Shown: positions 2,066 to 61,481 of the stretch, in pieces
Position numbering within the stretch: the first letter of the stretch is position 1
Layout: every line of letters starts with the position of its first letter
Source of the DNA: Octopus vulgaris
Lineage: Eukaryota
Reading direction: 5' to 3'
DNA: 64,000 nt
NCBI GenBank assembly: GCA_951406725.2
Contig: OX597814.1
Span: 56,482,001 to 56,546,000 of the forward strand
Notes under the pieces: generated by a model
Database searches by the model: none
What the model was told of the DNA's origin: nothing
The model's input: the letters and a program-made list of their open reading frames with translations, nothing else
Program-made: the position numbers and the translations under genes

Positions 2066-3203
2066 TATAGGTTGGCAGCTAAGTTACCGCTGTTTTTTTT
2101 TAATTTTGGAATTTATTGCGTTTTTAAATTTTGGAATCTATTTTTTTCGAGAATTCTGTTTTTGAATCATTTTGAAATCTATTAGTTTTTTTTCCTCGTT
2201 AATTTTAGATAATTTTTGTTTATTTTCAGATGATTAAAATGGAATGTCAAGTTTAAAAAAACCAGCATTTTTGATACCTCCTTCTTTTTGCTTGTCATAA
2301 AGTTTTTAAGGCCGCAAAAACTGCTCGCGACATTTGTGCTGTATATAGAGAGGGTACCATAACTGAAAGAACCGCTCGTGATTGGTATGCCAAGTTCAAA
2401 AATGAAAGTTTTGACCCCAAAGACGCACCTCGTTCTGGCCGTCCAGTTGAGTTCGATGAAGAGCGATTAAACCAACTTTTGCACGAAAATTCTCGTCAAA
2501 TGACAAGGGAACTGACAGAGAAAATGGAATGCTCCTACACTGCTATAGAAAAGCATCCTCACTCGATGGGAAAGTTTCAGAAGGATGGAGCATGGGTTTC
2601 GCATGCTTTAAGTGACAACACCAAAAATCAGCGAGCCACGATCTCCGCTGGTTTGCTTGCTCGTCACCGCTCAACTCATGGACGCAAGCAACGATTTCTT
2701 TACCGAATCGTTACTGTCGACGGAAAATGGTGCCTGTACATCAATATGAAGCAGCGTAAGGACTGGCTTAGACCCGGTAAACAAGTGACACTGCGCGTGA
2801 AACAAGATCTTCATCCGCGTAAAACGATGTTGTGCGTACGGTGGGACTGGGAAAGGATTATACATTACGAATTATTTGAAAGGAACCAAACGGTCAACGC
2901 GGAACTCTATGTTCAACAGATGGAACGACTCAACGCGGCTATTCAAGAGTAAAGACCTAATCCGCAGCATGGAATTATTCTGCTACACGACAACGCCCGC
3001 CCTCATATCGCCAAAATGACCAAGGAAGCAATTCAAACGCATGGCTGGGAAGTGCTGCAACACCCATCGTACTCTCCTGATTTGGCACAAACGGATTTCC
3101 ACCTCTTTCGATCTCTTTCAAATGCTATGCGCGGAGTTTCGTTCAATACTGATGCAGAATTGAGAGCTTGGTTGGATCAATTTTTCGAGTCGAAATCGGG
3201 TGA
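2066..3203 (+). mobile_element. Mariner (DD34D) transposon, 3'-truncated, defective transposase
   Basis: TA + TAGGTTGGCAGCTAAGT left TIR; MECQV..., WVSHAL (WVPHEL), IVTVDGKW, LLHDNARPH, HPSYSPDLAQTDFHLF; in-frame stops. Confidence 0.93.
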
Positions 3204-9647: not shown

Positions 9648-11047
9648 TTCAGTAGTTTTATTTTTATAGCGTGCTTTCACTTTACTACCGAGCGCAGCTC
9701 TGTGTGCCTTGGGTATGTGCTGTGATTTGTTGTGATGCTCTGATGGTTACTGTATTGAAAGTGTTCTGCGTAGGATGTGGGCAGTGCCTAGTAGTGCAAT
9801 TTTCTGTATGTTATATGTGTTTGTAAGTCCTGGTGTTTTTGTTATGCATTTGTCTGAATATTTTTTTATCTTGCCTAATGCCCCTACTATGATATGAATT
9901 GTTTCTGTTTTTAGATTCCACATTCTAGTTACCTCTATTTCCAGGTCTTTGTATTTTGAAAGTTTCTCCATTTCTTTTAGAGACACGTTGTCATCTGCTG
10001 GTATTGATACATCAATTAGAAAGCATTTTTTCCCTTCATGATCTCTGACAACTATATCTGGTCTGTTGGCCTTAATTTCTCTATCTGTGTGTATTGGCAT
10101 ATCCCAGAGTATGGTTGCTTTCTCGTTTTCTGTGACCTTTTCTGGTGTGTGCCTATACCATCTTTTTTCTGTTGTTATTCCATAATGTTGGCATAGCTTC
10201 CAGTGTATGTAGGTCCCAACTCAGTCGTGTCTGTGAATATATTCCTTCTTAGCCAGGACTGGGCAGCCAGGGATAATATGATTTATTGTTTCTTGTCCAT
10301 ATTCTGCAGTTACTTGTTATATTTCTTTTCATTACATGTTTTTGGCAATTTCTGGTGGGGAAGGCTTTGGTCTTGTGCTGCAATTAAAAATCCCCCTGTC
10401 TCTGCTTTGAGTCCTGAACTTCTCAACCACTGCTGGAAATTTTTCTTTGTCTATTTCTTTTGCATTTAGTTTCGTCCAGTACTTGTCTTGAAGGGACTTT
10501 TCTTGCCATCGTTTTATCATGGTCCGTTGCTGTTCTAGTTTTAGTTTTGATTTCATTTGCTTTATAGCTTTTGTTGCGTTTTCTTCTTCTTCTTCTTCTT
10601 CATATTTGTTAGGTGGTATGATTTCTTGTTTGTATTTGTCAGCTTTCTTAAATACTGAGAACAATTTTTTGTTTTGCTCGTGTTTTGCCGCTATTTGTAT
10701 CAGTTTTCCTTGCTTCTGAAGCAGGTATTTTTGCAGTCCTATGGTGGTTATTTTATAATAGTTTTCCAGCTTTATAAGGCCTCTACCACCTTCTATACGT
10801 TGTATATATAGCCTTTATATGTCAGATTTTGGGTGATGCATCCTAGATCCTGTCATTATTTTTCTTGTTTTCCTATCTATTTTGGTTAGTTCATTTAGCG
10901 TCCAGTTAAGGATATTGTAGCTGTAGCTTATAACTGGGACGGCTAAAGTGTTAATACCTATTATCTTGTTTTTAGCATTGAGCTCTGTTTTTTAGTATTG
11001 ATCTAACTCGTCTATAGTATTCTTTCTTTATTTTCTCTTCTCTTTAT
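9648..11047 (-). mobile_element. Dong/R4-like family A, second copy (3' part)
   Basis: ORF 9747-10100 ANRPDIVVRD..FLIDVSIP..KLSKYKDL..IVGALG..ALLGTAHILR; 3' UTR matches 4679-4780. Confidence 0.93.
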
Positions 11048-13664
11048 TTGCGTGTGAAGCAAAGGCTCTCTCAGATGAGGGATACGTGGTGGAATAAGAA
11101 GGCTGATGAGATACAGGCGGCATCAGATTCCAATAACACAAAGCTGTTGTATGGTCTCTTGCGAGAAGTTTATGGACCGACGTCTTCCCTGATGACACCA
11201 CTTCGAAGCAGGGATGGTAAAGAACTTCGTTATTCACAAGGAATTCTGCGGAGGTGGAAAGAACACTTAGATGAACTTTTGAATCAGCAGTCTGTAGTTA
11301 GTGAGGATGTTCTCAATCTCATCCCTGGATTTCCTGTGAAGGCAGAACTCGCAGAATCACCAAAGCTGGAAGAAGTTGCGATGGCTGTCTCAAGGCTGAA
11401 TAATGGGAAGTCTCCGGGTATGGATGGCATACATGCGGAGTTGTTACAGCATGGTGGTGAGAAACTTCTGCAGAAACTTCACTCTTTGTTTGGTAAGATA
11501 TGGACTAGTGAATCTGTACCTGGGGACTGGAAAGATACAGTAGTGGTGGTCCTGTATAAGGGAAAGGGCAACATGAATGATTGTGGTAATTATAGGGGAG
11601 TATCGTTGCTGTCTGTCGTAGGAAAGGTTTTATGCGGGGTACTTCTGGATCGTCTACTGAAATACGTTGCAGATTGTGTTCTTCCAGAAAGTCAATCTGG
11701 CTTTCGTGTGGGACGTGGCACTGCTGATATGATCTTTTCAGCTAGACAGCTTCAGGAAAAGTGTGTGGAACAGGATCTGGATTTGTATAAGATTTTTGTC
11801 AATCTGACAAAAGCCTTTGATACCGTCAATAGAAAAGCATTGTGGAAAGTCCTCCAGAAACTTAGGTGTCCTGAAAAGTTCCTTGCTTTGGTTAGGTCTT
11901 TTCATGAAGACATGAATGGTAGGGTGAATGTTAGACGGAAAATGTCGGAGCCCATTTCAATACAAAATGGAGTGAAACGGGGATATTCTGGCACCGACCC
12001 TATTTTCCATATATTTTGCGATGTGTTGTGTATTGCATTCAGAAACTGCAGGTACGGTGTTTACAGTGTTTACATCCATTATCGAACCTCTGGCAGCATA
12101 TTTAATATCAGGCGCTTTGCTGCAAAAACAAAGGTATTTACCTCTATCATAAGAGACCTTTTGTATGCAGATGATTGTGAGCTAGTAGCACACACAGGGA
12201 TTGATATGCAACGCATTTTGAATGCATTCTCTGGCGCTTGCACTGCCTTAGGATTGACAGTCAATCTCAAGAAAACTGTTGTCCAACCTGTCCTGGTAAG
12301 CAGTATAGTGTACCAAATATCTATGTGTATGATAAACGACTTGATGTAGTTGATCAGTTTGTCTACCTGGGAAGCACTATTAATAGATATAGCAATTTGG
12401 ATGATGAAATTCCATATAGAATTAGGAAAGCAAGTGTTGCTTTCGGAAGGCTAGAAAAGCGCCTCTGGAGTCGGCGAGACATATGCAGAAAGACAAAGAT
12501 AAAGGCGTACAAGGCATGTGTGCTCTCTTCTCTTCTCTATGCCTGCGAGACGTGGGTCACATATCGATGCCACCTTAAACAACTGGAACGTTTCCATCGG
12601 GTATTCAGTCCGATTATTTCTATGTCCCTGCGCATGATACAGTCTTAAGACATTTATTGGATGGCCGTTGACTCTCAAGAGTTCCTCCGCCCTTTGACGG
12701 GTTTCGTTTTTCATCCCGCAGGGTGTTCAATAAACACCTTCCTCACCAAGTAAGCTTGGTGGGGTTGCCAGTTTAGTCACCGACGACCCGACCATGCAAC
12801 AGGTTGTACTGGGTTACATGTTACCAGTAGCACTCGAAAGTGACCTGACATACATACATACATACATTCCATCAGATGTGTCTCAGACGGATCTATGGCA
12901 TTAAGTGGAAGGACCGCATCAGTGATCTTGAAATATTGGAAGGCTCTCGGTGTGAAAGTATAGAAGCTCTTGTGTTAAAGCAAAGGCTCCGATGGAGTGG
13001 TCATCTGGTCAAGATGAAAGATTCAAGGATGCCAAAACAACTCTTTTATGGAGAGTTAGCTAAAGGAGAACGACCTCCACATAAACCAAAAAAGAGGTAT
13101 AAGGACTTGCTGAAGGCTTCCTTAAGAGATGCTTGCATCTCTCCCGACACATGGGAAGGCATAGCTATTGATCGTAGCAGGTGGAGAAGGATTGTGCACG
13201 AGGGGCAGCCACTTTTGAGAAATCTCGAGTCGCACATGAGAAAGTAAGGAGGGATGTCAGGAAGGGCATCGCTGTTACACTTCCAGATGGGAAGGGTCTT
13301 CATATGATGCTGACATGCAGTGTCTGTGCAAGACCCTGCCTCAGTAAAGCTGGACTCAAGAGTCATCTTCGTAGTCATAAAGCGAGACAGATGAGTGACA
13401 ACCTGGCCACTGGTGGTGGTGTAACACACCATACTAATCATATCTGAGAGAGTGTAAGTCGGCAGGAGGACTTAAACGACATGCAAAGGTACATGTAGCC
13501 CAATTGCAACTACAGCCAGCTATTACCGGTAAAGGTTTTAGTTGCCTATTCTGTACAAGACATTGTAGATCTTTAGCTGGGCTAAAAAGTCACATTCGAT
13601 CACAGCACCAGTAACAGTTAAGCTTCGTGCAATGGCCATACTCGATAACGAGGGGGCAGCCATA
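11048..13664 (+). mobile_element. RTE-clade (BovB-like) LINE, 5'-truncated: RT plus C-terminal C2H2 fingers
   Basis: 433-aa ORF with KSPGMDGI, NYRGVSLLS, ESQSGFR, LTKAFDTV, LYADDC; later FVYLGS, LLYACETW, RLRWSGH; (ATGT)n tail follows. Confidence 0.95.
12599..12866 (-). mobile_element. 268-bp insertion in the RTE ORF; structured non-coding module, probably an RTE 5' UTR
   Basis: TTCCATC duplicated at 12592-12598 and 12867-12873; removal restores ERFHQMCLRRI; homologous to 61235-61421. Confidence 0.75.
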
Positions 13665-18046: not shown

Positions 18047-18975
18047 TTATTATTATTGTTATCGGCGAGTTAAGACATGTTTTTCAGAGCTTCATCAGGT
18101 TGGATTTTGTGATTTTTTCAAGTTTATTGAAAATAAACTTGAAAACTTTTGTTTGTCTGTTTTTATTTTCCGAACCCCTTTTGGTGTGGAGAAGACGTTC
18201 TTTTGTTGAAAATTTCCCCCCTTCAGGGGCAAATTTTGGACTTTTTGTCCATCTACAATATTTTTTGCTTTTCGTTTGACGAAAAACAAGATAGCTTCTT
18301 CCGTCGAGGGGAGTGCCGGTGGCTGTTCTGACGACCAGTACAGGCAAGATCCCACCCCCCTCTGAACAGCACAATCACGAGCAACGGTGCCAACCATCAC
18401 CATCAACAACAATATAGAAAACCCAGAAAATATAGCAAACCAAGAAATCACCACTAATGTTCCTGAAAAAAGAAGGAGGAAGAGAGATAAGAAAAAAAAG
18501 GATGATACTGACACCACAAACACGAACAGCTAATCTAGCGGCAACGGTTTCGCCTTGGCGGCAAAGCAAACGAAAGAGATGTTGAATTTGACAACAAATG
18601 AAATACAAAATGCAAAGGGATTGTTAAGGAAGGAAACAATGTCTTCCTTAACACCCCTCGGGAATTAGTAAAGGAAACGAATCGAAAATCAGTAATACAC
18701 AGAGTTTTAAACATCAAAAAGGAAAGAGTAGAAAGAGCCACCCAGAAACTGTTAGAAATGGCCATCAAACCGATTTGGACCAACAAAACCTATGGGACAA
18801 GAGGAAAGCGCTTCGGCACGGTGGAAGTGCGTTTTGCAACTGAGAAGGAGGCAAGACAGCATTCCACTGTGCCACTAAAAACAGACGAATTCCTACTCGT
18901 GCCGACATACCTTGGTGGGCGCGTGAAAAAAATTAAAATTGGGGAGGTGCCCCCGAAATAAATACATGTTGGCTG

Positions 18976-19448
18976 GTGGCGGCTGTCCTTTTTTATATAG
19001 CGGACACCGCCAATATACTGGAGGTGCATAAATTGCACCAACAAAATTGGACGGGTCAGGGACTAGAGCTTCTTGTTCAAATTGAAAAAGGGGCCATAAA
19101 TTCTATCCCCGACGCCATAAATTTACCAGACGGCACGAGACTGTACGTAACCGTAGAGGGCAGGCGGCTGAGGTGCTACTTTTGTGGGAACGACCAGCAC
19201 CTCAAGGTCGACTGCCCCAAATACGAAAAAATGCGAAAAAAGCTGCAAGCGACAACAGAAGCGGGGGCACCTCCAGTGCAGCAACAGAAATCAAACACAT
19301 CGCTATCAGTAACACTGACGCCGCCTCTAGCAGTCGCCAGGGCAACACTAATACCAACACCAACAACACCGGACGGAGTAAGACCACCAGCCGAAGTAAC
19401 TCAACCAGTCGGGCTATCACCACCACCACCACCAATACCAGCCGGAGT

Positions 19449-19479
<31 letters not shown>

Positions 19480-20031
19480 TATGAACACCCCACAAAAAAG
19501 TACAGCCAAAGAATATCCCCCCTTCTCGATCAAAACAACCCGGACTATTCGAGTATTGAGGTCGAGAAGGGGGAATGGCAAACAGTTCCCACTAAAAAGA
19601 GGAAAATAAGACAGTGGAAGAAAGAGGGAGAGGCGCAGAGAGGAGGAAATGCCCAACAGCAGCAACACACACACGCACACAGCAACCAACAACACGCACT
19701 ACCACCTCAAACACCGACACAAGCAGATTGCCCAAACACCACCAACCTCACAGCCATCGACACCGACAACACAAACCTCGTTAAATATCTCTGGCAACAC
19801 ACAGACACCACAATGGAAGACATTCTCTTTCTAACATACAATGCACCACCACCACCACCACACATAAAAATATTGAAATTAAAACATGGCACCTACAACC
19901 ATCTAAAAAATAACTTTCCTTGTGCTGTCGGGTCTTTTCAAAAAATGTTTTCTAAAACAATCTACAAAAACCTCGTAGAAACGCCCACAACAAAGACCAG
20001 GGGGACAATAGTAAGCAGAGCTCTTCTCTGA
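18976..20031 (+). pseudogene. Tx1 ORF1 (gag-like), C-terminal open segment
   Basis: 351-aa frame with CYFCGNDQHLKVDC (CX2CX4HX4C), Pro-rich linker, WQTVPTKKRK; upstream part broken. Confidence 0.85.
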
Positions 20032-20044
20032 ATTTATTTTTACA

Positions 20045-23000
20045 ATGGTCATTGTAAGAGGTTGTGTAAATCTCAGGGGCCTCAGGTCGCTTTGCAAACA
20101 AGATCACCTTTTAAATGACATGAGGTCCCTTAGTGTAGATGTTGCAGCCATTAGTGAATCCAGACTATCCGACCCACTGGACCGCATCACCTTTTTCGGT
20201 GGATACGAGTTTTTCTATCTCCGTATCGGCCGGGAGGGGACGGTGGTGGTACTGTGGTGTTTTTCCGGAAGGGTCTGGATTTGAAAATAAAGGCAGTCTT
20301 CCGGGATCCTGAAGGTAAGTTGGTGGTCCTAGATGTGAACAGCGGTGACGGCGGTGCTTTCAGACTGGTGGCTGTCTATGCTCCGACTGGGGCAGGGCGG
20401 TCTGATTACTTCAAGCTTCTGGAGGATTTCCTGGGAACGTCTCGGACTTTAGTATTAGTAGGGGATTGCAATACTCTCTCAGATGGACGTTTCGATTGCG
20501 TGGGAGTACCTGATAGGAAAGTGAAGGGCAAAAGCCTCAAACACTTGCTCACATGTTTTCACTTGTCTGACGGGTACCGACTAGATTACCCGAATGTGTC
20601 AATGTGGACTTGGACAAACCGCTTCGGGTCATCTAGATCGTATCTAGATAGGGTATTTTGTAGGCCAGAGGATAAGGATAGCTTAGGGTGACCTCAATTT
20701 CACATAGTCGTCTACACAGACCACAAATTTGTGATCTGTACGGTCGACTTAGATAGACTTCATAGACAGAGTCCCGGTTGCTGGAAGCTGAACACGTCGT
20801 CACCGGCGTGTCAAGATTAAAGAGACCGTAGTTAAGCGGGCGTTGACGGGGCTAACGTCAACAGCAACTGGTAGTTTGCTCTTAAAAGGGCAATTAGAGT
20901 AGAATGGATTAGGTTCAGCAAGGCATTAGCGGTGGAGAAAAATAGAATAGAGGGAGATTTAGTTAGAAAGTTAGATGAGGCACTTAGGACAGGCATCGCA
21001 ACTGGAGTGTTGGCGGCGAGATTGGCCCCCGACCAATTTTTCGACGCCAAACACGAAGGTTGCGTTGTCAGAGCTAAGGCACGCTCACTAAGCGGGGAGG
21101 GAACGAAAGCGTCGCGATGGGCCCGCGTGGCAGAAGCGAAAAGTGGCAATAAAGTCACCATTCGGTCATTGGTGTACCAGAGCGAATGTGTGGTGTTCGA
21201 GCTGAAACAGATGTGTGCGGCTTTTCAATAGCACTTTGCTCGACTGTTCGGGACGAATGGTGGGACGCTTCATACGAGCTTCAAACTGTCTGTCGTACGA
21301 GCTTCATACTTCGATGCCAGACTTGTTTGCGGGCTTCTTAGCAAACGTCTACTGCAATTGGCAGCAGAATGGGAGAATTCCCACTTTTGTCTGTCGAGGG
21401 GCGGTAGTACTACTGAGAAAGGACCCAAACAATGAGACGTTATAAAGAATTTCAGTCCCACCATTCTGCTCAATGCGGTGTTGAAGATTTTGGCCAAGAG
21501 GCTGGTGCTTGTCGTGGACAAACTGGTTGGCGAAACGCAAACATGCGCTATCTTAACTAGGAATATTCACGATAACCTCCATCATTATGTGCTACATCAT
21601 AGAGAAGGGGGATTACGAAGCTGGTATGGGTGGGGGTCTGATCAATTTAGACCAATCTAAAGCCTTTGATAGGGTCGACCATCAATACTTGGCAGCTGTC
21701 CTCAGAGCAGCCGGTTTCGGTCCAGTTTTCCGCAGTTGAATCGCTGCTTTGTATAGCGGCATCTGCTAGGATGTTCGGGTGAATGGTCACCTGTCAGAAC
21801 TATTCAGCATCTTGCGTTCGGTCCTGCAAGGGTGCCCTCTATCCTCCCTTTTCTATATACTGACTCATGAGCCATTACTGCGGAAGTTGGAGGCTTTGAG
21901 GGGTGTCCCGCGTGATCTAGGATATGGGAGAAGTTTGCTTACGGTGATGATGTCACCATCATAGTGTCGAGCCACAGGCATATAGACCTGATTGGCGAAA
22001 CACTACAGGTATATGAAACGGTGAGAGGAGCAAAACTTAACGCGGGAAAAACAGTGGGTTTGCAACCCGGCACCTGGAGATTCAAGTCCATGCCGTCGAA
22101 CAGCGTTGTAGGACCCTGGACAGACGATCCCGTTCAGTTGGTCCGGTTTGGTCCGGACATCCAGGTGGAGAAAAACTTGGACGAGGTGACGAGCAGGGTA
22201 GCCAATCTTACCCAGAAATGGGCCGAGAGGAAGCTGTTCCTGAAAGATCGAGAGAAGGCGACGAATGCGTATATCGCATCCGTCATCTATTAGCGCTTGA
22301 CTGTCGTTCCTTGCCCTGTTTACGGGTTGACCAAGGTGGTGCGCTTACTCTTCCGCCGCCGAATGGCGGGCTGGACATGCCGTGGTTACTGATGCGCAGA
22401 CATGTGCTGCAGATGCATACATGCGGCATCTCCAGTGTTCCCTTGACAGTCAGCAGGTGTGGTCACTGTTTGTAAGAGACACTTTTCCACAGCTCGTTTC
22501 TTTAACAATCGTGGATTAGGCGTAAACTGAGAAGGTACGCTTGGCACCTCGAGTGCCGTCAATTCCTCACAGCCGGGCGGTCACTGCGGTCGGTGTTAGT
22601 TACATTCTAGAGTTCTGTTGAGGGCTAGTGGAGGGAAAGTTCGACGACGTTCTCGGGAAATACTGGGTGCCGATAAAGATCAACTAACCAGTCTGTTTCG
22701 GAGAACTTTTTGGCTTGTGCCTATGGATAACTTCAAGAAATCCCTTGCCTGGTAGTGCTACCGAGGGACGCAACCTGTTCGGGATATACTTTACACGCCT
22801 GAGGTATGCCCAGAATGATCAAACCGTTCTGCACGCCCCAGTCCAGTACCCGAGTATTGCTGACCTGTGGGTTTATGTTGAACACCTGCTGTCGCGTGTG
22901 TGACGTATCTGACTATCAGCTGAATCCATTGTGAAAATTGCCCTGCCGTCCTCTTTTGGCGAAAAAGGGCAGGCAATTTTTATTTGTCTAGTGGCTGTAG

Positions 23001-58639: not shown

Positions 58640-59700
58640 TTGTGAAAGCACGTGGTTGAATATATAGAAAATAGTAAAAAGTGAAAAAACTACAGAAGGC
58701 TTAAAGGTTAAAAAATATATATATTTGCGTCAATATGTCTGAAGAATATTAAACATTTTTTTTCCTTACAATGACATAGTTTAGAAGAAAGACCGGTTTC
58801 GCGTTTAGCTTTTCAAATTTCTTACGACGTTATGTTTATGTTGAATAGAGTTATCGTTATGTTTATGTTTAAAAGAGTTCTAAATAAGGGGAGGTAATGA
58901 GTGATTTCTTCCAGTGTAAGGGAGATAATCGCTTAAATTTTTTTCCTTTCCCTTGGTGTGAATTTCTCTGTATCAGTATGTTGGCATGGTTAAGTCTGGG
59001 CTTGTACTTTTCAATGAAGAATGTTTCCTTGTTTAGTCTAATTTGTGTTGATGATCCGATAGCACATTGGTAAAATGGAAAGATTAAAAATTGTGGTAGT
59101 AGTTGCTTTGCGCATTTCTCAATATGCTCACTAAAAGGTATCATTCTGTATTCTGGAAATGCAATCTGTTGTCGATGCAGTGTGCATCTACGTCTGAGTG
59201 ATAGTCCCGTGGATCCCACGTAGTCTTGGTGGCAGCCCGAGCATTTTATGACATAAATTATGTTTTCAGAGGCACAAGTAAAGTTAGATTTGATCTTGAA
59301 TTTCTGTCCCTCTTTAAAGAGGAATTCTGATCCTTCTAGCAGGTTTGGACATGTTGCACAGTTCGATCTACCACATTTTAAAAAAAATTTTGCATCCGTA
59401 ATTTCAGAAAACAATTTTGCCTTTGTGAGAATCTTTTTAAGTGATTTAGGTTGTTTGTAGCTTTTAATGATTTGGTGTATGTTTAGAATTCCCTTTAATT
59501 TGGGGTCCTTATGAAGTATTGGTAAATTCTGGGTGATGATGGTGAAGGCTTCTTTGTTTCTGGGGTTGTATGTAGATATGTAAGGTAGTATTTTCGGGGA
59601 AGGTGTGTTGTTGTGTTGAACTTTTCTTAAAGTTTCTATGTTGATTTCTGTTGCACGTCTGATCCCATCCTCTATGAGTTGAGCTGGGTAATGTCTGTCA
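58640..59700 (-). mobile_element. Penelope-like element (Neptune-like), RT thumb/linker + GIY-YIG endonuclease, 5'-truncated
   Basis: Open frame 59700-58869: RHYP, LPYISTYNP, CGRSNCATC, FTCASENIIYVIKCSGCHQDYVGSTG, H..C, E..FI..Y.P.LN; GAAACCGGTC in the 3' UTR. Confidence 0.9.
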
Positions 59701-59920
59701 ATATATATATATATATATATACATACATACATACATACATACATACATACATACATACATACATACATACGACGGGTTTCTTTCAGTTTCCGTCTACCAA
59801 ATTCACTTATAAACCACTGGTTGGACTGGAGCTATAATAAAAGGCACTTGCCCAAGATGCTGCGCAGTGGGGCTGATCCCGAAACCCTTTGGTTGCAAAA
59901 CGAGCCTCTTAACCACATAC
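59701..59920 (-). mobile_element. SINE family S2 5' half with (TATG)n/(TA)n
   Basis: cgacgggtttctttcagtttccgtctaccaaat. Confidence 0.8.
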
Positions 59921-61234: not shown

Positions 61235-61420
61235 GTCAGGTGAAGGGTCTTATCATAGGCTGATGAGATCTGCTGCTGGTACTATGTAAATCAGTACTAC
61301 CCGTTTTCATGGTCGGGTGATTGGCGACTGAGCCAGCTACCCCATTGAGTAGTTTGCTACTCTTGTGAGGAGGGTATCTGGATACCCAGCGGACTAAAAG
61401 CAAGGCCTGTCAAAGGACGG

Positions 61421-61421
<1 letters not shown>
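61235..61421 (+). other. Multi-hairpin non-coding module homologous to 12683-12849 (putative RTE 5' UTR)
   Basis: Shared GTCAGGT, CATGGTCGGGT, GTGAGGA, GTCAAAGG.CGGA; hairpins conserved with different sequence. Confidence 0.65.

Positions 61422-61481
<60 letters not shown>

Follow-up and report, generated by a model that had tools for sequence, protein, structure and literature searches.

The subclass 1a xrRNAs of mosquito-borne flaviviruses combine a three-way junction, two pseudoknots (PK1 and PK2), a U-A-U triple and a single unpaired C between helices P2 and P3 (PMC8374639, PMC12081666, PMC8571300), and this C sets them apart from subclasses 1b and 2 (PMC8374639). The ring is closed by an extruded L3 base that pairs with a base after P1 (bioRxiv 2020.06.25.172429), and in class 1 xrRNAs the halt site lies 4 bases upstream of PK1 (PMC12081666). 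HDV-like ribozymes have been reported from the 5' ends of retrotransposons in several clades, among them RTE, R2 and Ingi (PMC5786205, after Ruminski 2011). Their proposed tasks are to set the 5' end and to guard it against 5' exonucleases (PMC5786205, PMC12222951, PMC11331408), and for R2 the protection by the HDV-like fold is proposed not to depend on catalysis (PMC12222951, PMC11331408). In octopus, brain expression has been reported for the RTE LINE RTE-2_OV (Petrosino 2022, PMC9115989). A 2025 paper states that no xrRNA-like structure is known in cellular RNA, and none of the best-ranked titles and abstracts listed in literature searches, a scope outside which subscription papers and Repbase reports lie, concerns an xrRNA in a retrotransposon or a cellular genome.

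The window analysed here is a stretch of 64,000 nucleotides from Octopus vulgaris, whose genome of 2.8 Gb abounds in microsatellites and broken retrotransposons. A sequence-only reading had described two diverged stretches on opposite strands, sharing four anchors and five hairpins, as an RTE 5'-UTR RNA under structural selection. The stretches, anchors and hairpins lie where it had placed them, and its description is supported: the pairing covaries, and relatives carry an APE-RT ORF downstream. The expected position ahead of an RTE APE ORF holds for those relatives and not for the two window copies, both of which are broken-off 5' ends with no ORF after them. The first two hairpins, drawn separately as H0 and H1, are real helices and not separate ones: they are the arms P2 and P3 of one junction closed by CAGGU/ACCUG. 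This three-way junction, and the pseudoknot between the H1 loop and CAUGG, had both been missed.

Both stretches, copy A and copy B, are RTE-type 5' ends whose first 59-79 bases are predicted to form a subclass 1a xrRNA, one that probably stops Xrn1/Xrn2. The reading draws on the 5'-terminal position, the three-way junction, the covarying pseudoknot and the conserved core bases, which the sequences show. The predicted fold is a known viral one in a new cellular setting, likely with a new role.

The octopus domain shares with subclass 1a xrRNAs (RF01415 Flavivirus_SLIV, RF03547 Flavi_xrRNA) the GUCAGG start, a 5-bp P1, a variable P2, the junction C, the P3 core, two unpaired junction bases, PK1, the positions of the U-A-U triple, a PK2 of 4-7 bp and the hairpin that follows, together with tandem copies in one family and a similar P3 plus L3 span (23-25 bases against 19-23). 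It differs in lying in a cellular genome, mostly at a LINE 5' terminus (also in the interior of an LTR element), where the viral domain occupies a 3' UTR. At two junction pairs it has U-A in place of the viral C-G, and the score falls under the Rfam cut-off. The octopus structure would also guard a coding, full-length template, whereas the viral one yields a non-coding decay product (sfRNA). The features of both copies are listed in Table 1.

Table 1. Positions of the features of copies A and B in the window; paired strands are joined by "with".
Feature	Position	Strand	Remark
Copy A xrRNA-type core	61235..61313	+	long P2
Copy A P2	61242-61272	+	
Copy A P3	61274-61280 with 61290-61296	+	
Copy A PK2	61281-61286 with 61308-61313	+	
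Copy A downstream hairpins	61315..61424	+	
Copy A H2	61315-61342	+	
Copy A H3 core	61347-61362	+	
Copy A H4	61372-61387	+	
Copy A H5	61389-61409	+	
Copy B xrRNA-type core	12791..12849	-	core positions all intact
Copy B 5' G-U	12849-12848	-	core base of xrRNA-type domain
Copy B P1, CAGGU/ACCUG	12847-12843 with 12804-12800	-	
Copy B P2	12842-12831	-	H0 of the sequence-only reading
Copy B junction C	12830	-	
Copy B P3	12829-12824 with 12812-12807	-	H1 of the sequence-only reading
Copy B PK1 partner C	12806	-	
Copy B PK2	12821-12817 with 12796-12791	-	loop strand with CAUGG
Copy B downstream RTE 5'-UTR hairpins	12697..12789	-	
Copy B H2	12789-12762	-	occupies place of xrRNA P4
Copy B H3	12761-12744	-	
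Copy B H4	12738-12722	-	
Copy B H5	12719-12697	-	
Whole copy B insertion	12599..12866	-	17 bases of (TATG)n and first 251 bases of family B
7-base direct repeat TTCCATC	12592..12598 (+) and 12867-12873		flanks copy B insertion
5'-truncated RTE-type LINE	11018..13662	+	RT frame 11018-12349, resumes beyond copy B insertion

Conservation and recognition of the 5' domain

In an alignment of 17 non-viral, non-LTR sequences, 94.0% of the cells of the 5' domain are paired, compared with 85.5% in shuffles and 25-47% in slid controls. Pairing reaches 98.8% in P1, 96.6% in P2 and 100% in P3; PK2 stands at 78.8%, a figure lowered in part by two misaligned rows and by a lineage that has no PK2. Both sides change in 8 of the 21 pairs (2/4 in P2, 3/6 in P3 and 3/5 in PK2), which bears out in a deeper alignment the compensatory pairing that had been claimed from two copies. 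P1, PK1, the triple and the junction C give no covariation because they are invariant among the non-viral copies: PK1, between the 5' G and the junction C, is G-C in 17/17, the single unpaired C between P2 and P3 is present in 17/17, and the bases for a putative U-A-U triple are present in 16/17, the exception being copy A with G-U. The search patterns required the P1, PK1, triple and junction C bases, whereas families A and B came from similarity searches, and P1, PK1 and the junction C are present in family A as well. The 3' tail of L3 is A-rich, as in the flavivirus loci, and a U directly follows P1 in 12/17. The P1 pair that closes the junction is U-A in all 17 non-viral sequences, against C-G in 10/10 flavivirus loci.

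In 14 of 15 lineages PK2 is built of 4-6 Watson-Crick pairs; the lineage without it is L344. In an alignment-free comparison of the 15 lineages, loop strands paired with their own partner over 4.47 bp on average, versus 3.11 with those of others and 2.47 in a shifted window, and 0 of 100,000 permutations reached the observed sum. These lineages were hand-picked from clusters chosen without regard to PK2, and they are related, so the permutation result is not a clean probability.

When the 5' domain was folded in isolation, three of eight non-viral sequences gave the exact junction, two a slipped register and three another structure; one of the two flavivirus controls also folded otherwise. Copy B formed the three-way junction and copy A did not. 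For the whole module, folding energies are modestly better than those of shuffles (z -2.24 and -1.83).

At the gathering score, the Rfam search of the window returned no match. At a relaxed threshold, the sole match of copy B, to Flavivirus_SLIV, spans the full 75 positions of the model (22.7 bits, E 0.084, cut-off 54.5), and copy A matched no xrRNA. Weak matches to the same model were obtained for 5 of 13 short loci from several families (16.7-22.7 bits) and for 0/2 family C controls; the genome-wide RF01415 search gave no match in the 64 scored of 84,788 candidates. Four of ten flavivirus loci likewise lack an xrRNA match at the cut-off at the corresponding site.

The core sequence pattern matched 3421 sites in the octopus genome and one in the reversed control, a count in which many sites belong to the unrelated family C, and the long-P2 pattern matched 99 sites and none. 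Sites other than family C sort into families A, B, B2, B3, D, E and F. Family C, which lacks P2, was rejected as xrRNA-type (0/16 loci pass the structural criteria, 0/12 match model R1); it is very abundant and fits the sequence pattern without the structure, and is thus a trap for pattern searches (L062, L063, L065, L069-L075 and others). On the viral collection a loose pattern gave 120 stretches, flavivirus 3' UTRs among them. Nine of the 17 viral loci given to Rfam carry flavivirus DB or CRE elements, and a tenth flavivirus locus (L137) was so classed by size and position only.

A model (R1) was built on the 17 non-viral, non-LTR rows. At a threshold of 20 bits, and among 80 of the 120 viral loci, all of which share the pattern, it recovered 7/8 flavivirus-size 3'-end loci and 2/72 others, the latter two likely RNA-virus contigs; it also located a second xrRNA overlooked by the pattern. 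R1 matched 16/16 held-out family F loci and 1/100 prokaryote pattern matches (100 of 120 run). Copy A, one of the training rows, scores 52.2 bits. A rule-based filter with all structural criteria passed 12/15 and 15/29 loci of the octopus genome, 7/10 flavivirus loci, 3/110 other loci of the viral collection and 1/120 prokaryote loci. The prokaryote pattern matches behave like chance.

These data bear on whether the conservation lies at the DNA level, as an internal promoter, or is the neutral relic of a captured viral 3' UTR, with the xrRNA likeness due to chance or left over. LINE 5' termini often contain promoters, the Rfam score is low, and loose patterns do yield chance matches, as in family C and the prokaryote loci. 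Compensatory changes in P2, P3 and PK2 nevertheless run across lineages with about 24-72% protein identity, P2 varies from about 11 to 35 bases and is a hairpin throughout, and the flanks that were characterised are retrotransposon or host sequence. A DNA-level or relic origin is largely refuted by the covariation and is in our judgement very improbable.

Downstream hairpins and the two loci

Over 15 sequences, the domain that follows the knot is 88.3% paired, compared with 82.2% in shuffles, and 11 of 20 pairs change on both sides (9/16 of the pairs predicted by RNAalifold); the compensatory pairing claimed earlier holds here too in a deeper alignment. H2, H3 and H5 covary. H5, which had escaped the sequence-only reading, gives the strongest signal (4/4 pairs). 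H3 is present and had been drawn too short for family A; H4 is also present and is the weakest helix, 72% paired in a register probably one column off and absent from the RNAalifold prediction. At about 250 bases from the start, L317 and L377 closely match a 23-base RTE-like sequence of cephalopod SINEs (PMC5786205), which ties these UTRs to the described RTE mid-UTR domain.

The same knot could have another main job, in binding an element protein, anchoring the 5' junction or forming with H2-H5 a domain for cap-independent translation, with nuclease resistance weak or incidental. The knot directly adjoins four conserved hairpins with conserved loops, and the retention of 5' UTR parts by bipartite non-autonomous RTEs implies a role in cis (PMC5786205). 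A non-coding LTR element, in which there is no 5' end to define, also carries tandem knots in its interior. Families D, G and F, however, have other sequence in place of H2-H5, and the knot is retained with three different downstream sequences (families A/B/E, D/G and F), which makes it a separate and independent module. The bases retained are moreover those that the flavivirus ring requires (PMC8374639, PMC8571300), and viral xrRNAs typically occur in tandem (PMC8374639). Such another main job appears unlikely to us. The IRES or RT-binding role suggested by the sequence-only reading may be left for H2-H5 only, which D, G and F lack. These hairpins form a distinct, lineage-restricted UTR domain, whose role we would guess to be translation initiation of uncapped RNA or protein binding.

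Both window copies are repeats whose relatives run on downstream and have GTCAGG as their upstream limit. Copy A is 74-82% identical to the 40 scored of 258 genome candidates, and belongs to family A, an old element of about 400 bases; a (TA)n run from 61425 cuts it off. It differs from its own family at one base of P1 (61302), at the A of the triple (61275) and at the first pair of P2, and it has a 4-base linker; these four core departures mark it as a decayed copy, probably a non-functional one.

Copy B shows 95-97% identity to the 40 scored of 2590 genome candidates. Its family B is a non-autonomous element of about 550 bases with an RTE 5' UTR and 3' end and an (ATGT)n microsatellite tail, as in the bipartite non-autonomous RTEs and RTE-derived SINE bodies of Kojima 2018 (PMC5786205), where the conserved domain lies instead in the middle of the UTR. 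At 14 viewed of the 18 GTCAGG sites in the supplement of that paper, the fold was found in none. Given the adjacent (ACAT)n, copy B might have been a 3' end in reverse orientation; this was ruled out by the layout of family B, in which 39 of the 48 listed copies reach the 3' motif and tail about 550 bases away. The insertion is 3'-truncated and lies inverted within the LINE that it interrupts, between TTCCATC repeats that are likely a target-site duplication. This LINE ends in 45 bases that match the family B 3' end at 96% identity, and elements of its kind likely mobilise family B. Upstream of copy B, a (TATG)n run (12850-12866) lies inside the flanking duplication and therefore came with the insert; it could stem from an antisense transcript primed at its own repeat, or be upstream flank brought along.

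The window holds further fragments at 58869-59831 (-), 9747-10814 (-), 18937-22475 (+) and 2275-2952 (+). By their translations, these look like a GIY-YIG ORF of Penelope type, LINEs of Dong/R4 type with (TAA)n ends, a LINE of Tx1/L1 type and a mariner transposase.

The autonomous LINE and the 5' ends of its insertions

Family B2 was represented by 61 pattern matches, 47 of which have the 3' end within 5 kb. Among the 36 copies longer than 3.7 kb (median pair identity 96%), three contain an intact ORF of 1109 aa with APE, RT and zinc-finger parts, which begins 587-602 bases after the G and thus leaves a UTR of about 590-600 bases. All four published RTE-2_OV primers tested match one B2 copy exactly and at the expected spacing. 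On this sequence evidence family B2 is the RTE-2_OV family, which it resembles in ORF size, UTR length and primer matches. Copies B and A, 88% and 75% identical to the B2 5' region, differ from RTE-2_OV in being non-autonomous relatives, and the accessible text of its description (PMC9115989) mentions no RNA structure of the UTR. The published RTE-2_OV transcript coordinates (PMC9115989) place the first base about 19 bases inside the element, which a collapse of repeats in the assembly could also produce, and this offset is not counted as evidence.

Of 226 loci examined, 17 have a sense endonuclease-domain match after the motif, a count that includes duplicates and at least one probably unrelated neighbour. 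Among the carriers, local identity is as high as 72%, and in RT it drops to about 24%.

Target-site duplications of at least 9 bases were resolved for 35 of the 47 B2 copies. The gap between duplication and G is 0 in nine, 1 in three, 2 in two, 3 in eleven, 4 in four and longer in six; 29/35 insertions thus begin 0-4 bases before the fold, with a mode of 3, in a set where several duplications lie within microsatellites and two loci are near-duplicates. The gap is suggestive next to the xrRNA halt site but not discriminating, because reverse transcriptases add untemplated bases (PMC11331408); such addition, or a start site close by, would explain the 0-4 extra bases just as well. Upstream-base logos of families A and G show no clear 4-base leader. 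Among 28 copies of family D, roughly half have one or the other of two common upstream flanks (L592-L621), which confounds an analysis of their flanks and indicates that these copies sit in, or spread with, other repeats. In many copies (L225, L226, L242, L245, L317, L664), the first 5-20 bases, as GTCAG units, are duplicated ahead of the element, which suggests repeated priming or template jumps at the RNA 5' end.

A self-cleaving ribozyme, HDV-like or of a new type, could instead free the element from a read-through transcript. The knot is, like the HDV-like ribozymes of R2, RTE and Ingi/L1Tc, a compact pseudoknotted RNA at the extreme 5' end; its exact 5'-terminal position, the loose resemblance of the nested P1 and L3 pseudoknot to HDV, and the 9/35 junctions without an extra base would all suit cleavage. 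Extra bases are nevertheless present at 26/35 junctions, neither an HDV topology nor its catalytic motif was found, and no Rfam ribozyme family matched at E up to 10, twister included for both window copies. A descriptor of the HDV type, defined by a nested double pseudoknot with a P3 of 3 bp, an L3 of 7-8 bases and a catalytic C in J4/2, was run without a positive control and had no match in 10 of 11 sequences and one non-conserved match. The hammerhead core CUGANGA...GAAA is absent from both window copies and from 8/9 relatives; a hammerhead in copy A, considered because of CTGATGAG in H0, lacks the GAAA partner. The xrRNA model, in contrast, accounts for every conserved base. The undescribed ribozyme of the sequence-only reading thus gives way to a described viral fold, and we regard self-cleavage as quite improbable.

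If the 5' domain acts as an xrRNA, the 5' G-U would thread through the ring with PK2 as a latch, and Xrn1/Xrn2 would be halted a few bases ahead of the element. RNA read through from a flank, or initiated near the start and then decapped, would be trimmed to and held at about 3-4 bases before the G, leaving a stable full-length template that needs neither cap nor ribozyme; unlike with HDV-like ribozymes, the end would come from the halting of a host nuclease. The xrRNA knot resists from the 5' side only. The reverse transcriptase, arriving from the 3' side, would therefore copy through it, and fresh insertions would begin at the knot.

Other carriers and the meaning of the fold

Family F is a non-coding element of about 750-800 bases with terminal direct repeats of about 150 bases (TG...CA), which we take to be a TRIM-like LTR element (L261-L276, for example L261:5529-6279, G000:C12 near 33.736 Mb). 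A purine tract precedes the right repeat, and two or more of the six copies viewed have a 5-base duplication. The element carries 1-3 tandem xrRNA-type units, with P3 and PK2 compensated within each.

The metagenome scan returned at least 121 stretches, including further families with other P2, L3 and PK2 sequences. Two contigs contain four tandem units (L332:1142-1406 (-) and L337:148-407 (-)), three of which have a P1 of CGGGC/GCCCG, a compensatory change in the otherwise invariant helix; L332 repeats itself at about 1.6 kb, which would suit a unit that is tandem or circular. Beyond the flaviviruses, RNA-virus-like contigs also show the subclass 1a fold (L422:3001-3060; L424:1150, 1497; L303:2703, 3039; L437), with a U-A P3 pair, placed either downstream of the final ORF or as tandem units between ORFs. 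L422 has weak Pfam matches to RdRP and an S-domain coat protein, and L303 to a coat protein.

A broader proposal, which we put forward tentatively and think somewhat less probable than its opposite, is that the xrRNA is an old mobile module of LINEs, a small LTR element and unrelated RNA viruses. For some LINEs, trimming of read-through transcripts by a host exonuclease would then be a third route to the 5' end, beside definition by a promoter and cutting by a ribozyme. The LINE active in octopus brain would be a natural case of an xrRNA in cells, and viruses may have received the element from retroelements or handed it to them.

Thousands of copies in the genome carry the predicted subclass 1a fold, which opens a LINE whose transcription in octopus brain has been reported. 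If the proposed function is correct, it would show how uncapped LINE RNA survives with a defined 5' end, and would bear on the origin of viral xrRNAs. The stability of the RNA 5' end limits R2 insertion (PMC12222951, PMC11331408), and in that case the fold would also give tools for RNA-templated insertion, which share this limit, protective 5' parts of non-viral origin.
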